A stretch of DNA of 7,208 nucleotides from a virus (taxonomy: Duplodnaviria > Heunggongvirae > Uroviricota > Caudoviricetes): positions 1-7,208 of IMG/VR virus record IMGVR_UViG_3300049596_000585, one strand, 5' to 3'. A program made the position numbers and the translations under genes. Shown here one piece after another: positions 1 through 7,208 of this stretch. Position 1 is the first letter of the stretch. Each line of letters opens with the position of its first letter. The notes beneath the pieces are model-generated. The model did not search any database and was not told the DNA's origin. It saw only the letters and a list, made by a program, of their open reading frames with translations.

Positions 1-782
1 CAGCCGGTGTCAGTGTCCAGTGAGTAGTTATTAAAGCGGATGACCTCCTGACCGAGCCAGCCGTTTATCTCACGGATCCTGTCCTGTAACGGGATAAGCT
101 CATTGCGGACAAAGACCTTTGCCACTTTCTCAATATCACCCAGCGACCCGACGTTCTCCGGCTTGCCGCCCATCAACTGAAAGGGGATGCGGTGCGCGTC
201 CAGCAGGTCTGCGGCACTGGCTTTTTTGATATTAAAAAAATCGTCCTTCGTCGCCACTTCACTGAGCGGGATAATTTTAATGCCGTCGGCTTTTCCCTGT
301 GGGGCATAGAGAAACAGGTTTTTAAAGTTGTTGCGGCCTTTCGACTTCACCATGTTTTCGCGAAGCATTTCGATATCGTTGCGATCCTGCACGGCATCAG
401 TGACGTACATGATGTATCCGGCATGTGCGCCGTTTTCGTAATACTTGCGGCGGAACAGCGTGGCCGACTCATTCAGCCAGGCAGAGTTAAGGGCGCTGAG
501 ATATTCCGGCAGGCCGTACAGCTCCTGATTAATATCGGGCTCCAGCAGGTGAAACACGGAACCGGGCGCGAAGGCTGTCGGTTCGTTGAAGGACGGCACC
601 CACCAGTAAACATCCTCCTCCACGCCACGGCGGGTATATTTTGCCGGTGAGGTTTCCAGTCTGATGACCTTACCGGTGGTGCTGTAACGCTTTTCCAGAA
701 ACGCATTACCGAACACCAGAAAATCCAGCACAAAGCGGCTGAAATCCTGCTGGGAAAGTCGCCGAAAATCGCCAGTGTGCAT
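1..782 (-). CDS. Partial CDS whose 3' end lies beyond the left window edge; phage head/packaging-module protein, tentatively portal (P2 gpQ / PBSX-family-like). The 5' end is uncertain and possibly truncated.
   Basis: Manual translation of the minus strand gives a stop-free frame from at least 782 to position 1 (...LSQQDFSRFVLDFLVFGNAFLEKRYSTTGKVIRLETSPAKYTRRGVEEDVYWWVPSFNEPTAFAPGSVFHLLEPDINQELYGLPEYLSALNSAWLNESATLFRRKYYENGAHAGYIMYVTDAVQDRNDIEMLRENMVKSKGRNNFKNLFLYAPQGKADGIKIIPLSEVATKDDFFNIKKASAADLLDAHRIPFQLMGGKPENVGSLGDIEKVAKVFVRNELIPLQDRIREINGWLGQEVIRFNNYSLDTDTG...). Codon usage is E. coli-like between 1 and about 700. The overlapping + ORF 192..650 in the track translates to low-complexity C/H/R/G-rich sequence typical of an antisense shadow. 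The gene is absent from the ORF track only because it has no stop in the window. There is no Walker A motif, which argues against a terminase ATPase domain. The portal assignment rests on recollection of P2-family portal sequence character, not on a search. The frame stays open upstream to TTG 974, but 783-974 is rich in rare codons (AGG, CGG, CGA, ATA, CTA) and none of the candidate starts (ATG 782, ATG 950, TTG 974) has a Shine-Dalgarno. Confidence 0.45.
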   Translation of the reverse strand, partial: MHTGDFRRLSQQDFSRFVLDFLVFGNAFLEKRYSTTGKVIRLETSPAKYTRRGVEEDVYWWVPSFNEPTAFAPGSVFHLLEPDINQELYGLPEYLSALNSAWLNESATLFRRKYYENGAHAGYIMYVTDAVQDRNDIEMLRENMVKSKGRNNFKNLFLYAPQGKADGIKIIPLSEVATKDDFFNIKKASAADLLDAHRIPFQLMGGKPENVGSLGDIEKVAKVFVRNELIPLQDRIREINGWLGQEVIRFNNYSLDTDTG

Positions 783-914
783 CAGTTCGGTCTGTCGGAA
801 GAAACCCGGAAAGACGGTAAGAAAATTGATTATCCGGCGCGTCCTCTGCTCGGCTTTACCGGTGAGGATGTGCAGATGATTGAAGAGATTATCCTGGCTC
901 ACCTTGAGCGTTAG
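651..914 (+). other. Open + frame ending at TAG 912-914; possible 3' remnant of a rightward gene (candidate tail-completion gpS-like C-terminus) convergent with the AT-rich gene
   Basis: The + frame is stop-free from 651 to 914 (...GKSPKIASVHQFGLSEETRKDGKKIDYPARPLLGFTGEDVQMIEEIILAHLER*). Codon usage between about 777 and 914 is clearly better on + than on - (minus has AGG, CGG, CGA, ATA, CTA). The only in-frame starts are GTG 777 (45 aa), GTG 870 and ATG 876 (12 aa); ATG 876 has a strong SD, GAGGA at 864-868 with a 7-nt spacer. No full-length gene is possible, so this is either a 3' gene remnant or a small ORF. Confidence 0.2.
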
Positions 915-943
915 TTTTATCCAGGCAGAGGCTGATGCGCAAT

Positions 944-980
944 TAAACATTGAGCGGCCATGCTGGTCGCTCAATGTTTA
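944..980. terminator. Perfect 13-bp inverted repeat (944-956 TAAACATTGAGCG / 968-980 CGCTCAATGTTTA) with an 11-nt loop; candidate bidirectional stem-loop between convergent transcription units
   Basis: Read directly from the sequence. It lies 6 nt downstream of the stop of the minus-strand gene 986..1771 and 30 nt downstream of the + frame stop at 914. U-tracts are weak or displaced on both strands (AAUU on minus; UUUUUAUUU about 15 nt downstream on plus), so it is not a canonical intrinsic terminator. Confidence 0.4.
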
Positions 981-985
981 GAGGC

Positions 986-1771
986 TTATGAGTGATTTTT
1001 ATTTGATGCTTTGTATTCTACAACCTTCTTATTGGCGTAAAGGAATTTTGTATATGACAGGAATATAACCAGACCTGAAATGAAATAGATGAGGGATATT
1101 ATTAATAATGCTTTTTTTTGGCTGTTATTATCTTTAATTTCCTGACTTAACCATTCCGAGTCCTCCTCGTTTAGCTGTAAGAGCTTATTGCAGGCGATCT
1201 CAGGAAGTGTGTCTTTTATAAATATGTTTCGTAGCCTCTTGCAATCGGCAAGGCTATAAGTTGTATTGAATTCAACTGTTTTATTGTTGAAGGATAAAAG
1301 AACTTTGTCACTATAAACATAGTACATCATATTTTTATATGGTATGCCTATGGCATCTCTTACTATAGCGGATTGTTTGTTGTGTATATAACATGCGAAG
1401 AGAATATAAATAATGCTGGACAGAATTACAATTATTGTTTTAATTATGTGTGGTGGTTTTGTTATGTCACCCCAGAAGCGAGTAAGAAAAAAATACGATG
1501 TTTTTAGTTTTCCATCAATCAGCCCCTGCTGTATCATTCTCACATCTTCGATGCCTGATACATTGATTCCGTTAATTATTTTAAATAGTTGAATGTCGCG
1601 CCATTTTTTGTCGAGCATTTTTAACTTTCTGTCTGAATACTCAAAATTGAAATGATGTGCAATAAACCTCATAAGATTACTTTTACCAAAGGTAATAAAT
1701 GTTAATGCTATTAATAAAAATAGATACAAAGAGATAAACCACCACGCATTAGTCACATTATCACTGAACAT
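986..1771 (-). CDS. AT-rich 261-aa predicted inner-membrane protein with three TM segments, function unknown; cargo gene in the slot where P2 carries orf30, between the head/tail-completion side and gene V
   Basis: ORF track 986..1771 (-). ATG at 1771-1769 is preceded by SD AGGAG (complement of 1778-1782) with a 6-nt spacer. GC content is roughly 25-35% against about 50-55% in the flanks. Hydrophobic segments: aa 9-28 (AWWFISLYLFLLIALTFITF; DNA 1688-1747), aa 109-129 (IIKTIIVILSSIIYILFACYI; about 1385-1447), aa 221-240 (ALLIISLIYFISGLVIFLSY; 1052-1111). Loop 1 and the C-tail are Lys/Arg-rich, so the positive-inside rule suggests N-out/C-in. The second loop (about 90 aa) carries two Cys. No recognisable catalytic motif. 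Confidence 0.8.
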   Translation of the reverse strand: MFSDNVTNAWWFISLYLFLLIALTFITFGKSNLMRFIAHHFNFEYSDRKLKMLDKKWRDIQLFKIINGINVSGIEDVRMIQQGLIDGKLKTSYFFLTRFWGDITKPPHIIKTIIVILSSIIYILFACYIHNKQSAIVRDAIGIPYKNMMYYVYSDKVLLSFNNKTVEFNTTYSLADCKRLRNIFIKDTLPEIACNKLLQLNEEDSEWLSQEIKDNNSQKKALLIISLIYFISGLVIFLSYTKFLYANKKVVEYKASNKNHS

Positions 1772-1854
1772 TACGCTCTCCTCGAATGTTGTATGGTCGT
1801 TCTACAAATGAATCCAGATAGCATAACTTTTATATATTGTGCAATCTCACACGC
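1772..1854. promoter_or_regulatory. Divergent intergenic control region between the AT-rich gene and the tail operon; candidate late-promoter activator dyad and -10 element
   Basis: Imperfect dyad TTGT-N11-ACAA at 1789-1807. The reported Ogr/Delta-type site of P2/P4 late promoters is TGT-N12-ACA centred near -55, so the spacing here is one short. TATATA at 1831-1836 lies about 36 bp downstream of the dyad centre. There is no SD in front of the V ATG at 1855. On the opposite strand, a TATATA-containing stretch could serve the divergent membrane-protein gene. Confidence 0.3.
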
Positions 1855-2490
1855 ATGAACACTCTCGCAAATATTCAGGAACTCGCGCGCGCACTGCGCA
1901 ACATGATTCGTACCGGCCTTGTCGTCGAAACCAACCTTAAAGCCGGTCGCTGCCGTGTGCAGACCGGTGGCATGTGCACTGACTGGCTTCAGTGGCTGAC
2001 CCATCGTGCCGGACGTTCGCGCACATGGTGGGCACCTTCCGTGGGGGAACAGGTGCTGATTCTGGCTGTGGGCGGTGAACTCGACACGGCGTTCGTTCTG
2101 CCGGGGATTTATTCCGGCGATAACCCCGCGCCGTCTGCGTCGGCGGATGCCCTGCATATCCGTTTCCCTGACGGGGCGGTGATTGAGTATGAACCCGAAA
2201 CCAGTGCACTCACGGTAAGCGGAATTAAAACGGCCAGCGTGACGGCTTCTGATTCTGTTACTGCCACGGTGCCGGTGGTCATGGTGAAAGCATCAACCCG
2301 CGTCACCCTGGACACACCGGAGGTGGTTTGCACCAACAGGCTGATTACCGGCACGCTGGAAGTGCAGAAGGGCGGGACGATGCGCGGCAACATTGAACAC
2401 ACCGGCGGTGAACTCTCATCAAACGGTAAGGTACTGCATACCCATAAACACCCCGGCGACAGCGGCGGCACAACCGGGAGCCCTCTATGA
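1855..2490 (+). CDS. V: Baseplate spike/assembly protein gpV (P2 V-like, Phage_base_V family)
   Basis: The ORF track frame 1837..2490 starts at TTG, but the internal ATG at 1855 gives a 211-aa product (MNTLANIQELARALRNMIRTG...HKHPGDSGGTTGSPL) matching the length and sequence character of P2 gpV. It is first in the V-W-J-I-H order, and its stop overlaps the W start (ATGA at 2487-2490). Confidence 0.9.
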   Translation: MNTLANIQELARALRNMIRTGLVVETNLKAGRCRVQTGGMCTDWLQWLTHRAGRSRTWWAPSVGEQVLILAVGGELDTAFVLPGIYSGDNPAPSASADALHIRFPDGAVIEYEPETSALTVSGIKTASVTASDSVTATVPVVMVKASTRVTLDTPEVVCTNRLITGTLEVQKGGTMRGNIEHTGGELSSNGKVLHTHKHPGDSGGTTGSPL

Positions 2491-2834
2491 CAGCGCGTTA
2501 TCTCGGAATGAATTGCAGTGATGGCCTGACTGTCACTGACCTTGAGCATATCAGCCAGAGTATCGGCGATATCCTGCGCACACCGGTCGGCTCGCGGGTG
2601 ATGCGTCGTGATTACGGCTCGTTGCTGGCGTCAATGATTGACCAGCCGCAGACCCCGGCGCTTGAGTTGCAGATTAAGGTCGCCTGTTACATGGCGGTGC
2701 TGAAATGGGAACCCCGCGTCACCCTGTCATCCGTCACCACTGAGCGCAGTTTTGACGGGCGAATGACGGTCACCTTAACCGGCCAGCACAACGACACCGG
2801 CCAGCCACTTTCGTTAACCATCCCTGTGAGTTGA
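2487..2834 (+). CDS. W: Baseplate wedge protein gpW (GPW/gp25-like)
   Basis: ORF track 2487..2834, 115 aa, the same length as P2 gpW. SD GGGAG at 2476-2480 with a 6-nt spacer. Start overlaps the V stop, consistent with translational coupling. Confidence 0.9.
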   Translation: MTARYLGMNCSDGLTVTDLEHISQSIGDILRTPVGSRVMRRDYGSLLASMIDQPQTPALELQIKVACYMAVLKWEPRVTLSSVTTERSFDGRMTVTLTGQHNDTGQPLSLTIPVS

Positions 2835-2838
2835 AACC

Positions 2839-3747
2839 ATGCCGATTATCGACCTGAACCAGCTACCCGCACCGGATGTGGTCGAGGAGCTGGACTTTGA
2901 AACCATTCTCGCCGAACGCAAGGCGACACTGATTTCCCTTTACCCGGAAGCCCAGCAGGAGGCGGTCGCCCGTACCCTGACGCTGGAATCCGAGCCTCTC
3001 GTCAAATTGCTGGAGGAAAATGCTTATCGTGAGCTTATCTGGCGTCAGCGTGTGAATGAGGCCGCACGGGCGGTGATGCTGGCCTGTGCCGCGGGTAATG
3101 ACCTTGATGTGATTGGTGCCAATTACAACACCACGCGTCTGACTATCACCCCGGCAGATAATTCGACTATCCCGCCGACACCGGCAGTGATGGAATCTGA
3201 TACCGATTATCGTCTGCGTATTCAGCAGGCGTTTGAAGGTTTAAGCGTCGCCGGGTCGGTGGGTGCCTATCAGTATCATGGTCGCAGTGCTGACGGGCGT
3301 GTCGCGGATATCTCTGTCACCAGTCCGTCTCCGGCCTGCGTCACCATCTCTGTGCTGTCACGTGAGAATAACGGTGTCGCATCCGAAGACCTGCTGGCGG
3401 TGGTGCGTAACGCCCTGAATGGCGAGGACGTCAGACCGGTGGCCGACCGCGTGACCGTGCAGTCTGCCGCCATTGTTGAATACCAGATAAACGCCACGCT
3501 TTACCTTTACCCTGGTCCCGAAAGCGAACCCATCCGCGCTGCTGCCGTGAAAAAACTGGAAGCGTACATCACGGCACAGCACCGGCTGGGGCGCGACATC
3601 CGTCTGTCTGCCATTTATGCCGCTTTGCATGTGGAAGGCGTGCAGCGTGTCGAACTGGCTGCACCGCTGGCCGATATCGTGCTTAACAGCACGCAGGCGT
3701 CTTTCTGTACTGAATACCGCGTCGTGACCGGAGGCTCGGATGAGTGA
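2839..3747 (+). CDS. J: Baseplate assembly protein gpJ (Baseplate_J family)
   Basis: ORF track 2839..3747, 302 aa, the same length as P2 gpJ. Sits at the canonical position after W, 4 nt after the W stop. Confidence 0.9.
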   Translation: MPIIDLNQLPAPDVVEELDFETILAERKATLISLYPEAQQEAVARTLTLESEPLVKLLEENAYRELIWRQRVNEAARAVMLACAAGNDLDVIGANYNTTRLTITPADNSTIPPTPAVMESDTDYRLRIQQAFEGLSVAGSVGAYQYHGRSADGRVADISVTSPSPACVTISVLSRENNGVASEDLLAVVRNALNGEDVRPVADRVTVQSAAIVEYQINATLYLYPGPESEPIRAAAVKKLEAYITAQHRLGRDIRLSAIYAALHVEGVQRVELAAPLADIVLNSTQASFCTEYRVVTGGSDE

Positions 3748-4270
3748 TTCGCGACTGCTGCCGACCGGCTCATCACCGCTTGAGGTCGCCGCCGCAAAAG
3801 CCTGTGCGGAAATTGAAAAAACACCGGTCAGTATTCGTGAGCTGTGGAACCCGGACACCTGCCCGGCAAATCTGCTGCCGTGGCTGGCGTGGGCGTTTTC
3901 GGTCGACAGATGGGATGAAAAGTGGCCGGAAGCGACAAAACGCGCCGTTATCCGCGATGCGTATTTCATCCACTGTCATAAAGGCACTATAGGTGCAATC
4001 CGGCGTGTGGTGGAGCCGCTAGGCTATCTAATTAACGTAAAGGAATGGTGGGAGACAAACGACCCGCCCGGAACCTTCCGCCTTGATATCGGCGTACTGG
4101 AAAGCGGCATCACGGAGGAGATGTATCTGGAAATGGAACGGCTGATTGCCGATGCCAAACCCGCAAGTCGCCACCTTATCGGTCTGAACATTATCCAGGA
4201 CATTCCCGGCTATCTGTATACAGGCGGTGTGGTCTGTGATGGTGATGTTATTACTGTTTATCCCGGATAA
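3740..4270 (+). CDS. I: Baseplate/tail-fibre attachment protein gpI (P2 I-like)
   Basis: ORF track 3740..4270, 176 aa, the same length as P2 gpI. SD GGAGG at 3730-3734 with a 5-nt spacer. The ATG overlaps the J stop by 8 nt (ATGAGTGA). Confidence 0.9.
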   Translation: MSDSRLLPTGSSPLEVAAAKACAEIEKTPVSIRELWNPDTCPANLLPWLAWAFSVDRWDEKWPEATKRAVIRDAYFIHCHKGTIGAIRRVVEPLGYLINVKEWWETNDPPGTFRLDIGVLESGITEEMYLEMERLIADAKPASRHLIGLNIIQDIPGYLYTGGVVCDGDVITVYPG

Positions 4271-4280
4271 GTGAGAAACA

Positions 4281-7049
4281 ATGAGCACGAAATTTAAAAC
4301 CGTTATCACTACTGCCGGAGCCGCAAAGCTGGCAGCCGCCACTGTCCCCGGCGGGAAAAAAGTAACCCTGTCTGCAATGGCCGTGGGTGACGGTAATGGC
4401 AAATTGCCGGTGCCGGATGCTGGTCAGACGAAACTGGTGCATGAGGTCTGGCGTCACGCCCTGAATAAAGTCAGCGTGGATAACAAGAATAAAAACTATA
4501 TCGTGGCTGAACTGGTTGTACCGCCAGAAGTGGGCGGCTTCTGGATGCGTGAACTTGGTCTGTATGACGATGCCGGAACACTGATTGCGGTCGCTAACAT
4601 GGTAGAAAGCTATAAGCCTGAACTGGCTGAAGGCTCCGGGCGTGCGCAGACCTGCCGCATGGTTATTATTGTCAGTAACGTGGCGTCTGTTGAGCTGAGT
4701 ATTGATGCCAGCACGGTGATGGCGACGCAGGATTACGTCGATAAAGCCATATCCAGTTTTCATCGTACTGTCATTGATGATGTGGTTCTTCAGCATAAAG
4801 TTGTCCACGATATTGACTACGCCGGGATTTTTGACGGTGCGGATAATATGAGTCAGGGGTTCTGTATCTGTGATACGCCGCAGGGAACCAGAATGTTTCT
4901 GCATCAGCCTGTATCGGGTGGCGTAAGGATTGTTGAAACGACATTTAACCCTGACGGAGAAAACGAAAACCCGACGGTCATTTCGTTTTCTCCCGTTTTC
5001 GCTGATATTGGTCACCAGAGTATCGGGGCTGTATGTGAAGACGGTCGCGTGATGCTGTATACCCCGACCGCTGACGGCAAGGGTGTGAATATCATCAACT
5101 GGAATGGGGCTGACACCAGTCTGTTGATTGTTCAGTCAAGTAATGAAGCCGTCCATCTTCATTACAACAGGGATGACCGCCGCACAGTTTATGTTTTCGA
5201 TCGCGCTTCTCTGACGTTTAAACACCGGATTTATCTGTCCACCCAGTCAATGGTGTCGCAGGCATTTCAGGGGATGGCCAGCGATGGTCATTATCTGTTT
5301 GCTTATTACGGTTATACAGGCGTATTTCTGACTCACCGCATTGTTGTATATAACCTGTCAACGGGCGAAGTTGTCAGACAGTTCAATGTGGATGGCGTTC
5401 GTGCCAGGTATGGCCGCCAGAAAATGCTGGGGAATGCAGAGCTGGGGTATCCCGTTTTGCAGGAAGCCGAAGGGCTGGCTCTTCATAACGGAAAACTGTA
5501 TCTGCTCGATATGGATTTCTGGTGTCAGACAGCAGATGTGGTTTCTTTTGAGGGGGCATACTTTGCAGCACGTGCAACAAATTTTTCTGGCCGTTCCCCG
5601 GTGAATCCATCTTACTGGACGCCTACAGCATATGGAACGGCGGCTGCAACGAAATATGATGCCACGAAGTCTTATACGTGTGGCGTGGCGACAAAACGCA
5701 GCAAAGCTGTGGTTTCCGTGGAGGCTTACGACGGCACAGGCTATCTGGTGGACTCCGGCGTGGCGTTTCCTGACAGCCATGCTAGCCTTTTTCTGAGTCC
5801 CAATGCTGTAAATATTGCCCTGTCACCCAATGAAGACTTCCAGGTGGCAGCCTATGAGCAGAATCTGCGCTCGCATCGCCCGTTATTTGAGGTCAGAAAG
5901 GAGGCTCCGGATACAGACACTTCTGCTGCTGTTTTTCGTTTGTACGGGGATGCGTTCCGAACCGGAGAATACACAGGCCGCTTCGTTCAGTGGAAACACC
6001 GACTGAACACCGTGCACGATTGTCTGGAAATACGCGCTGACGTGGATTTGTTGAGCGGTGGCGGGATTAACCTTTACTCAATGAACGATACTCAGTCGGC
6101 GGGGCGCACAAGGCTTTATTGTACCGATGGCAGTGAGACCTGGTCTGTATTATTGAGTCCGGTCTCGCCGGCATTTCATCCCGACCAGGACAAGGCAATG
6201 AATCTGGGGTCATCGCCAAATCGCTGGAATGTGGCATACCTGCAGGGCGTGAATATTAAATCGGATGACGAAACCCAGAAGCGCATGGCCATCAGCACCA
6301 CGCTGAAGGCGGGAGCTTTCCAGGTATCAACAGCCGGGAATCTGGGTATTTATGACGATTCTGCTGACGCTTATGTAATTGCAGCCCGTAGTGACGGCAC
6401 TGCATTCATGCAGATGGATACAGATATTAACGGTGCATTCCGGCCATCGGTTAACAATACCAGCGACCTGGGTGCGCCCAACAAAGCGTTCCGGAGCGTG
6501 TATCTCTGCAACTCGCCGACCGTTGTGTCGGATGCGACGTTAAAGGATACACCGCGCGATGCGACGGCAGCCGAAAACGCGGCATTTGCAGAAATAGCAC
6601 GGCTTCCGGGCGTGTGGCGCTGGTTACAGAGAATTGAGGAGGAGGGCGAGGACGCGCGTCTGCACGCCGGGCCGACAGTCCAGGCCGCGATAGCGGTGAT
6701 GGAGAAACACGGTCTGGACTGGCGGAAATACAGCGCATTTTGTCTGGATTCGTGGGAAGCGGAGGAGGCACAGTACGAAGATATACCGGAAGAGTATGAA
6801 GATATTCCGGTTCAGCCAGCGATTTATTCGGATGAAGGGGAGCTGTTGAGCGGGACAACTCGTGTGCTTACCCGACAGGCGGAAAGGGTTCTTGTTCGCC
6901 CTGCAACCGAAGCAGGAAGCCGTTATCGCTTCCGGAAAGAGGAGCTTCTCTGGTGGTGTCTACGTGCTGTTGTCAGCCAGGTGGATTTGTTAATGGAACG
7001 CTTTGTTGACTTAAATCGTCGTTTGATGAAGTTGGAGACTTCAGAATAA
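4281..7049 (+). CDS. H: Tail fibre protein gpH-like, mosaic: P2-type N-terminal anchor (about aa 1-160), divergent distal receptor-binding region (about aa 161-749), C-terminal S74-type intramolecular chaperone domain (aa 750-922)
   Basis: ORF track 4281..7049, 922 aa, against about 669 aa for P2 gpH. The N-terminus (MSTKFKTVITTAGAAKLAAA...WRHALNKVSVDNKNKNYIVAELVVPPEVGGFWMRELGLYDDAGTLIAVANMVESYKPELAEGSGR...TQDYVDKAI) has the conserved P2 H anchor character. The remainder does not resemble what I recall of P2 H. The C-terminus carries an SDATLK motif followed by ...RLHAGPTVQAA... and a terminal heptad-like segment (LLWWCLRAVVSQVDLLMERFVDLNRRLMKLE), the pattern of Peptidase_S74 intramolecular chaperone domains. 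Confidence 0.9.
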   Translation: MSTKFKTVITTAGAAKLAAATVPGGKKVTLSAMAVGDGNGKLPVPDAGQTKLVHEVWRHALNKVSVDNKNKNYIVAELVVPPEVGGFWMRELGLYDDAGTLIAVANMVESYKPELAEGSGRAQTCRMVIIVSNVASVELSIDASTVMATQDYVDKAISSFHRTVIDDVVLQHKVVHDIDYAGIFDGADNMSQGFCICDTPQGTRMFLHQPVSGGVRIVETTFNPDGENENPTVISFSPVFADIGHQSIGAVCEDGRVMLYTPTADGKGVNIINWNGADTSLLIVQSSNEAVHLHYNRDDRRTVYVFDRASLTFKHRIYLSTQSMVSQAFQGMASDGHYLFAYYGYTGVFLTHRIVVYNLSTGEVVRQFNVDGVRARYGRQKMLGNAELGYPVLQEAEGLALHNGKLYLLDMDFWCQTADVVSFEGAYFAARATNFSGRSPVNPSYWTPTAYGTAAATKYDATKSYTCGVATKRSKAVVSVEAYDGTGYLVDSGVAFPDSHASLFLSPNAVNIALSPNEDFQVAAYEQNLRSHRPLFEVRKEAPDTDTSAAVFRLYGDAFRTGEYTGRFVQWKHRLNTVHDCLEIRADVDLLSGGGINLYSMNDTQSAGRTRLYCTDGSETWSVLLSPVSPAFHPDQDKAMNLGSSPNRWNVAYLQGVNIKSDDETQKRMAISTTLKAGAFQVSTAGNLGIYDDSADAYVIAARSDGTAFMQMDTDINGAFRPSVNNTSDLGAPNKAFRSVYLCNSPTVVSDATLKDTPRDATAAENAAFAEIARLPGVWRWLQRIEEEGEDARLHAGPTVQAAIAVMEKHGLDWRKYSAFCLDSWEAEEAQYEDIPEEYEDIPVQPAIYSDEGELLSGTTRVLTRQAERVLVRPATEAGSRYRFRKEELLWWCLRAVVSQVDLLMERFVDLNRRLMKLETSE
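6528..7046 (+). other. C-terminal intramolecular chaperone / autoproteolysis domain of the tail fibre (Peptidase_S74-like); predicted cleavage just before Ser750 with a Ser750/Lys755 dyad
   Basis: TCG (Ser750) at 6528-6530 begins SDATLK, with Ser and Lys spaced 5 residues apart as in the endosialidase-type S-D-x-x-x-K dyad. Downstream are an R-x-H-x-G...Q block (ARLHAGPTVQAA) and a C-terminal amphipathic helix. Domain length is about 173 aa. Assignment is by motif recognition only. Confidence 0.6.
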
Positions 7050-7208
7050 ACAAGCCTTAATGAGTATCTGCTTAAAATAGTGTTATCTACAGATCAAACT
7101 TTAGTTGATACGAGTCACTGTCCTCCCCGTAACAACTGGAGTTAAAAGATGTGATGGCATATAAATATAACATCAAATAATTATTTTTTTTGCCCCTCAC
7201 CCTTAATT

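Follow-up and report, generated by a model that had tools for sequence, protein, structure and literature searches.

What kind of domain does the tail fibre of a defective coliphage carry at its distal end, and what might that domain bind? The question arises from a 7,208-nt stretch of DNA (IMG/VR virus record IMGVR_UViG_3300049596_000585, positions 1 to 7,208; "the window" throughout), which encodes a fibre of 922 amino acids (aa) and is part of a defective P2-like prophage of the E. coli B lineage: compared with the P2-like prophage of E. coli B REL606 (NC_012967, 2.105-2.112 Mb), it shows 4 mismatches and one 90-bp gap. A preliminary description of the sequence had suggested that window positions 4761-6527 (aa 161-749) might form a beta-propeller or glycosidase-type receptor-binding domain. 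We consider it likely that the protein is a receptor-binding fibre with a five-bladed propeller related to those of phages phi11 and GA-1, that it is matured by its own chaperone, and that this particular allele is probably defective; for the window itself, the sialidase lead is wrong and the gene is probably broken. The analysis assigns a tailspike/fibre cassette, listed in databases only as "phage tail protein", to a structural class. The domains of the fibre gene, all on the + strand, are:

4281-7049, +: fibre open reading frame (ORF), 922 aa
4281..4754, +: N-terminal P2 gpH-type baseplate-attachment domain, aa 1-158 (PF12571, E 5e-57, aa 1-151)
4782..5726, +: predicted five-bladed beta-propeller platform, aa ~168-482 (AlphaFold strand pattern)
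5838..6185, +: predicted beta-sandwich domain, aa ~520-635, about 9 strands (predicted local distance difference test score, pLDDT, 84-96)
6198..6527, +: predicted trimeric stalk leading to the chaperone, aa ~640-749 (profile matches, sub-threshold PF12219)
6528..7049, +: Peptidase_S74 intramolecular chaperone, from S750 (PF13884, aa 750-812, E 2e-9)

Annotation with Pfam, NCBIfam or PADLOC returned nothing above threshold for the central region of the fibre. The boundaries first assigned to that region held: aa 161 is a mosaic junction at which similarity of the P2 type ends (gene nt 462) and similarity to gp75 of phage Pollock begins, and aa 749 is the last residue ahead of the predicted autocleavage serine, S750.

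Predicted fold of the distal fibre and its relatives

The fold was modelled twice with AlphaFold2. The model of an intact homologue (P0002, 12 sequences) is all-beta and confident only over aa ~170-520; the parts beyond the propeller called for a second model, built for window aa 161-749 from 72 aligned sequences (mean pLDDT 85.3; predicted template modelling score 0.76). One further homologue, P0052 (589 aa, from a Logan assembly), carries a systematic set of replacements relative to the E. coli protein (A>V, T>I/M, P>L/F, H>Y and R>C); because such changes fit C-to-T converted reads (bisulfite or deaminated DNA), it was left out of the modelling alignments. Strands of the window model are distributed as follows:

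aa 170-179: N-terminal strand, which, by analogy with phi11, probably closes blade 5
aa ~192-236: blade 1, strands 194-199, 202-211, 214-221 and 233-236
aa ~245-279: blade 2, strands 249-253, 256-263 and 269-274; fourth strand missing
aa ~280-319: blade 3, first strand missing; strands 282-287, 301-306 and 313-319
aa ~329-370: blade 4, strands 329-334, 338-343, 352-358 and 364-370
aa ~395-482: blade 5, strands from aa 396, with an insert of ~40 aa
aa 470-482: long exit strand after the propeller

The models thus present the distal fibre, at aa ~168-482, as a five-bladed propeller of the phi11-type class, with the five blades of four antiparallel strands that distinguish the phi11/P68 platform. 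When the intact model was searched with Foldseek, its four best PDB matches were phi11 (2e-12), the P68 fibre (3e-11), 80alpha (5e-11) and NF5 (4e-10), and the best non-trivial match in BFVD was gp12 of Bacillus phage GA-1 (4e-25, 563 columns); among the structural neighbours that are not from phages, five-bladed carbohydrate-active enzymes and glutaminyl cyclases form the majority. The strand pattern and these neighbours bear out the earlier suggestion of a propeller in the distal fibre. Within the close family we found no clear face-to-face contrast in variability of the kind sought as the sign of a hypervariable specificity "top face"; the blade-3 loops at aa 288-300 and 320-328 alone stand out as variable. 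In the E. coli clade, the blade-5 insert spans aa 418-468 (DNA ~5532-5684; about 40-50 aa, …SFEGAYFAARATNFSGRSPVNPSYWTPTAYGT…) and holds the widely conserved W446 and Y465.

Homology to the phi11/P68 platform is also detectable by profile methods. A family hidden Markov model (HMM) of 143 members, with E-values computed for a database (Z) as large as the PDB sequence set, matched GA-1 gp12 at 2e-135 in two stretches (aa 139-434 and 433-632), P68 gp17 at 1.1e-5 and phi11 Gp45 at 1.2e-3. The hhalign alignment of the family with phi11 Gp45 is co-linear over 223 columns (E 0.0057) and places SQGF on phi11 V-M164-Q165-S-F, G-H245-Q246 on G-H209-G-T211, F-Q330-G on M329-Q330-G, and QEAEGL on an identical QEAEGL. 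The fibre's ASDGHYLFAYY aligns to TYDAGILYWYTG in phi11, AVDGDDLYWLSG in P68 and ACDGNYVYIYTS in GA-1, and P68 has the same MQG...DG and E-P-E-G (KEPEG) motifs.

The platform domains of phi11 Gp45 (5efv), 80alpha gp61 (6v8i), P68 gp17 (6iab) and the Brochothrix phage NF5 protein (9m7x) hence belong to the same propeller superfamily, but the proteins around them differ. The stem, platform and double-tower architecture of phi11 and P68 is absent, its place being taken by the succession PF12571, propeller, beta-sandwich, stalk and PF13884: unlike the Staphylococcus platform proteins, the window fibre lacks both the coiled-coil stem with its hinge and iron site and the double "tower", and instead has a P2 gpH N-terminus, a beta-sandwich, a triple-beta-helix stalk and a cleavable chaperone. 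Because the host is Gram-negative, wall teichoic acid is excluded as a ligand.

The nearest characterised full-length relative is GA-1 gp12 (neck appendage protein precursor, CAC21533), in which propeller, second beta domain, stalk and S74 chaperone follow in co-linear order and whose chaperone domain has been solved (PDB 3gud). It matches at 23% identity over 76% of the query by tblastn (overall identity about 20%) and has the QG...DG, GHQ and EAEGL motifs in common with the window fibre, but it carries a different N-terminal virion-attachment domain, as a protein of a phi29-like podovirus with a Gram-positive host, and lacks the ~40-aa insert in blade 5. The GA-1 gp12-like appendage/tailspike family is unannotated in Pfam. 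Fold, chaperone and modular logic are thus all known already, and the sequence of GA-1 gp12 reveals the same architecture; the novelty lies in assigning a widespread coliphage/prophage cassette to the superfamily of phi11-type platforms. Gram-positive hosts alone are discussed in those accessible papers that cite 5EFV or PF21311, and the literature on the Pollock spike, the REL606 prophage fibre and five-bladed propellers in O-antigen tailspikes yielded nothing specific.

Beyond the propeller, the beta-sandwich is conserved with GA-1 gp12 aa 433-632; no relative of it was found in the PDB by sequence, and fold searches were dominated by the propeller. Short strands lead into the end of the stalk, where the last 35 residues (aa ~715-749) have low pLDDT in the monomer, as expected of a trimeric stalk modelled as a single chain. 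In a PDB search with the single protein sequence, only stalk and chaperone match: aa 680-838 align with T5 pb1 (4uw8, E 8e-15), and the stretches that follow match other chaperone-bearing fibres and endoNF (3gw6, E 2e-5); the family profile also matches the stalk of the phi92 endosialidase (4hiz). At aa 630-656, PF12219 scores below threshold (15.1 bits against a cut-off of 25) over profile positions 129-155 only, which correspond to the stalk. PF13884 reaches 38.1 bits against a cut-off of 22, and a Ser-Lys dyad stands at the predicted cleavage site, which together place the C-terminus in the S74 class: VVSDATLKD (S750, K755) aligns with TADARLK of T5 pb1, and S750 (6528-6530) with position 1264 of T5 pb1 in 4uw8, a structure that we take to be the cleavage-site S1264A mutant, with Ala at the aligned position. 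Autocleavage is predicted before S750, with K755 (6543-6545) as the dyad partner, and the mature fibre should, by analogy with endoNF and T5 pb1, end at V749. A chaperone of the same class as in endosialidase tailspikes had been proposed at the outset, and this is what we find: Peptidase_S74 (PF13884) is present, and stalk and chaperone are both homologous to theirs.

The 90-bp deletion

The two strands missing from blades 2 and 3 coincide with the one gap that separates the window from REL606:

5117..5118, +: junction of a 90-bp in-frame deletion, between T279 and S280

Thirty residues (SLTDVTRTEIFTSDFFTGDEIITVALSVDG in REL606) are lost, leaving 922 aa in the window against 952 aa in REL606 (WP_000104717), and the deletion is flanked by the imperfect repeats AGTCTG and AGCCTG. 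REL606, Pollock gp75 and the other full-length homologues in the alignment keep the 30 aa, as do every match listed at the top among 87 complete E. coli genomes, which retain the 90 bp, and all nine of the nine full-length IMG/VR matches, which have the intact length of 1677 nt. The exact 922-aa protein is recorded from one contig only, of 7208 bases, which the window therefore represents in full.

In the intact model, the lost segment corresponds to strand D of blade 2 (E285-289) and strand A of blade 3 (E301-307), and the pLDDT of the window model is only 56-60 over aa 271-300, with values under 50 at aa 276-281. The deletion leaves 18 strands, compared with the 20 needed. Because 18 is no integral count of four-stranded blades and the lost inner strand borders the central cavity, we infer that function is lost or severely impaired: judging from the models, the deletion would take away the contribution of blade 3 to the cavity, and the allele is probably misfolded or binding-defective. 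Such a defect fits the already defective state of the prophage.

Asp-Gly turns, cavity residues and competing readings

The preliminary description had drawn its propeller from six strings with Asp-Gly (DG) turns, all of which are present at the residues and bases given for them, on the + strand:

aa 252-260, DNA 5034-5060, +: CEDGRVMLY, strand A-B hairpin of blade 2 (DSSP strands aa 249-253 and 256-263)
aa 263-272, DNA 5067-5096, +: TADGKGVNII, B-to-C hairpin of blade 2
aa 333-343, DNA 5277-5309, +: ASDGHYLFAYY, strand A-B hairpin of blade 4, the best-conserved hallmark of the family
aa 482-490, DNA 5724-5750, +: AYDGTGYLV, end of the exit strand and linker
aa 614-621, DNA 6120-6143, +: CTDGSETW, ordinary beta-sandwich hairpin (strands 610-615 and 620-626)
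aa 703-711, DNA 6387-6413, +: RSDGTAFMQ, turn in the stalk

Enrichment was assessed against 5000 composition-preserving shuffles of aa 161-749. DG dipeptides (9 observed, 3.5 expected, P=0.006) and the pattern DG-x3-hydrophobic (6 observed, 1.1 expected, P=0.0008) exceed chance, so that the claim of recurring turns stands in that form, but the motif as it had been written, [S/T/A]-D-G-x3-hydrophobic, occurs at only three sites (aa 334, 615 and 704; 0.28 expected, P=0.004): CEDG and AYDG miss its first position, and TADGKGVN misses the hydrophobic one. Three more DG sites, at aa 185, 225 and 371, lie outside the quoted set.

A common structural meaning emerges when the starts of the blades are aligned:

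Blade 1: SQGFCICDTPQGTRMFL
Blade 2: GHQSIGAVCEDGRVMLY
Blade 3 (REL606): EIITVALSVDGSLLIVQ, of which the first ten residues, EIITVALSVD, are deleted in the window
Blade 4: FQGMASDGHYLFAYY
Blade 5: EAEGLALHNGKLYLL

In this alignment, D/N-G is where the inner strand A of a blade turns tightly into strand B, with a conserved polar residue 6-8 positions upstream, at the start of strand A; CEDGRVMLY and ASDGHYLFAYY are therefore equivalent hairpins. It had been foreseen that motifs in non-equivalent positions would count against the propeller, and this applies to half the case: two of the six strings occupy equivalent blade hairpins and four lie elsewhere. One might accordingly read the recurrence of DG as no more than the surplus of Asp-Gly type-I' turns that all-beta proteins commonly show, a reading in keeping with the four strings found in a B-to-C hairpin, a linker, the sandwich and the stalk, and with the three sites beyond the quoted six. 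However, one register (polar-G-h-x-h-x-x-D-G-x-x-h-h-h) recurs in the A-to-B hairpins of blades 2 and 4 and in that of blade 3, which the deletion has removed here, with degenerate versions in blades 1 (DTPQG) and 5 (HNG), and the DG hairpin of blade 4 is conserved as far as phi11, P68 and GA-1, so that we give the absence of any common meaning very little credence.

The polar residues stand at the start of these inner strands, the place where the central cavity of phi11 opens. The most conserved of them, numbered as in the window protein, are:

4854..4856, +: Q192 (SQGF, start of strand 1A), near-invariant in 72 sequences; aligns to phi11 Q165
5013..5018, +: H245-Q246 (GHQ, before strand 2A), H in 83% of 143 members; align to phi11 H209 and T211
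5268..5270, +: Q330 (FQG, start of strand 4A), 90% of 143 members; aligns to phi11 Q330 and to P68 MQG
5463..5471, +: E395-A-E397 (QEAEGL, start of strand 5A), 97% and 95% of 143 members; invariant in 72

In the 72-sequence alignment, Q192, R216, K267 and Y377 are near-invariant. The cavity of phi11 is lined by Gln165, Thr211, Gln330, Met164 and Met329, and N-acetylglucosamine (GlcNAc) has been modelled into it (Koc et al., PMC4901313). In the alignment, the polar part of this cavity is matched by Q192, Q246 and Q330, with S191 and F329 replacing the methionines. Q192 should thus line the central cavity, and the likely functional residues, as judged from the alignment, are Q192, H245/Q246, Q330 and E395/E397, which would ring the mouth of the central channel; Q192, H245, Q330, E395 and E397 offer concrete residues for mutation. 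By analogy, we infer that a glycan binds in the cavity and that the ligand is a surface glycan. Under this model, the S74 chaperone would fold and trimerise the stalk and then cut itself off at S750; each fibre trimer would present three propellers, so that six fibres would present 18 cavities, able to bind a repeated surface sugar (lipopolysaccharide, O-antigen or another envelope glycan) by avidity, and this binding would position the P2-type baseplate for sheath contraction.

Two enzymatic readings compete with that of a binding platform. The version proposed at the outset was a six-bladed propeller of the sialidase/BNR (bacterial neuraminidase repeat) type with Asp-boxes, acting as an endosialidase-like depolymerase. 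Endosialidase tailspikes (K1F endoNF, phi92, K1E) do follow the same plan of propeller, triple-beta-helix stalk and S74 chaperone, their stalk and chaperone are homologous to those of the window fibre (3gw6, 4hiz), K1E endosialidase appears among the BFVD matches (at 1.3e-4 only), and influenza neuraminidases occur far down the Foldseek list. The propeller of endosialidases, however, is six-bladed. A comparison of folds contradicts the sialidase reading: the window propeller is five-bladed in the models, and we found neither the repeated Asp-box nor a sequence match to the sialidase catalytic domain. Nor does CTDGSETW carry the Asp-box signal ascribed to it. Its match at three of the five fixed positions of S-x-D-x-G-x-T-W is at chance level (2 matches at >=3/5 positions observed against 1.58 per shuffled protein, P=0.48), no match at >=4/5 exists in aa 161-749, and the hairpin lies outside the propeller; its counterparts in close homologues read CTDGTETY, CTDGSTIN, CTDGHELY and CAKPDGTLSY, so that only C-T-D-G is kept and the T7 and W8 of the Asp-box are unconserved. 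On the grounds of fold neighbours, shuffle test and lack of conservation, the sialidase/Asp-box reading was rejected, and we allow it almost no probability.

The other enzymatic reading takes the propeller for a glycosidase, lyase, deacetylase or phosphodiesterase that acts on O-antigen, capsule or teichoic acid, with E395/E397 and H245 as catalytic residues at the channel mouth, and the fibre for a depolymerising tailspike, not a pure adhesin. Its plausibility derives from the structural neighbours, which are mostly enzymes with their active site there (the five-bladed enzymes and glutaminyl cyclases have it at the same location; see also PMC4901313), and from residues that stay constant across hosts: H245, Q330, E395 and E397 are 83-97% conserved across 143 diverged members, and the ring residues are common to Staphylococcus and Bacillus phage proteins with other receptors, as one expects of residues with a catalytic or structural role. 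Tail spike is, moreover, the annotation given to homologues in lytic podoviruses. Against this, no relative has shown activity (PMC4901313, PMC6795507, PMC7048315, PMC12917162), and we regard an enzyme as unlikely. A bolder form, to which we would assign a slightly smaller chance again, makes the ring of Q, G-H, Q and E-x-E a catalytic site throughout, from phi11, P68 and GA-1 to P2-, N4- and T7-like coliphages. Should this hold, the superfamily from phi11 to the coliphages would amount to an enzyme class that has so far escaped notice, built on a five-bladed propeller and modifying or cleaving some feature shared by the cell-surface glycopolymers of Gram-positive and Gram-negative hosts, and would take in even the textbook "non-enzymatic" platform of phi11 Gp45.

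Several points weigh against our own preference for a receptor-binding fibre of the phi11 type. To our knowledge, none of the members of the E. coli clade has a known receptor, and residues that stay invariant in phages of widely differing hosts more often belong to a structural or catalytic core than to a site of specificity. We counted the blades from the strand pattern of the models and the kind of structural neighbours they have, and placed the conserved residues in the cavity by alignment to phi11; the structure models are of monomers, so that the geometry of the trimer is predicted only. In phi11 itself, GlcNAc in the cavity is only modelled, soaks having failed (PMC4901313). The hhalign probability against phi11, with a single-sequence template, is low (6.5%). 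The window protein has no match to PF21311 (Phage_RBD_prop) at E<=1, and the intact REL606 allele (11.6 bits) and Pollock gp75 (13.6 bits) score below the gathering cut-off of 23.7, which phi11 (396 bits) and P68 (329 bits), as positive controls, far exceed; GA-1 gp12 scores nothing, and three of 40 distant family members match PF21311 (E<=1e-3). Because this threshold is missed although homology is detectable, we file the propeller as an unannotated sister clade of PF21311, a coliphage branch that widens the family of Staphylococcus receptor-binding platforms. Finally, the deletion could be an artefact of assembly, since it is seen in a single 7.2-kb contig; it may represent either that or genuine decay of a gene in a defective prophage.

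The fibre cassette and its prophage surroundings

The propeller-bearing part of the fibre, aa 161-749, is a mobile cassette that has been transferred as a module between phage chassis. Only the first 462 nt of the fibre gene are 96-98% identical to gpH of P2-like phages. The fibre thus resembles P2 gpH in its N-terminal 154 aa, and the two loci also have the gene order gpV, gpW, gpJ, gpI in common, the homologues of these four genes lying upstream of the fibre gene, but beyond aa ~158 the distal part of gpH is wholly replaced. From there on, aa 161-922 share 75% identity with gp75, the tail spike of Pollock, a lytic N4-like phage, and at the nucleotide level window 5265-6961 and Pollock 4001-5695 (locus L002) are 80% identical over 1.7 kb, direct evidence that phage families, here a temperate P2-like myovirus and a lytic podovirus, exchanged a receptor-binding cassette fairly recently. 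The same aa 161-749 are about 50% identical to fibres of T7-like coliphages (e.g., vB_EcoP_R4596) and of a Raoultella phage, which sit behind a T7-type N-terminus (PF03906). The cassette occurs on three unrelated phage chassis, behind PF12571, PF18668 or PF03906; Pollock gp75 and the T7-like fibres differ from the window fibre in these N-terminal adaptors (PF18668, PF03906) and in keeping the missing 30 aa. This modularity suggests that the cassette could be swapped to engineer host range.

Of 5426 complete E. coli genomes, 87 carry the cassette. An exhaustive profile search returned 199 cluster representatives (E<=1e-3), most of which cover profile positions ~20-360, the propeller, and about 60% of which also cover positions 360-540. 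A search of GTDB, with one genome per species and alignment A4, gave 40 pattern matches, none of which was confirmed as a relative.

The remainder of the window and the adjoining REL606 sequence belong to the remnants of the P2-like prophage. Two gene fragments lie at its left end:

1-758, -: portal-gene fragment, pseudogene in the REL606 annotation
747-914: virion-morphogenesis gene fragment, pseudogene in the REL606 annotation

The portal, tube and gpD fragments are pseudogenes in the REL606 annotation; together with the virion-morphogenesis fragment, they indicate that the prophage is defective and that the window begins inside a truncated gene. At the other end, P2 has gpG and the Z/fun locus after its fibre gene; in REL606 a GT2 glycosyltransferase gene occupies that place, on the strand opposite to the fibre gene and just past the 3' end of the window (locus L001, 11591-12703), and a separate assembly-chaperone gene of the gpG type is missing after the fibre. 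The GT2 gene could be a receptor-modifying (serotype-conversion) gene.

Between the P2 late-gene remnants and gpV lies an ORF of 261 aa (window 986-1771, - strand) with three hydrophobic segments and a GC content of 31-33%, compared with ~55-60% in its flanks; it has no Pfam match above cut-off and no PADLOC match, matches PHROG 2407 (unknown function), and looks like an inserted moron. The start of gpV is ambiguous, in that the mechanically called ORF (1837-2490, + strand) opens at a TTG at 1837 and the RefSeq start is equivalent to window position 1855. In REL606, an ABC-three-component defence system adjoins the truncated portal gene (locus L001, 233-3924).

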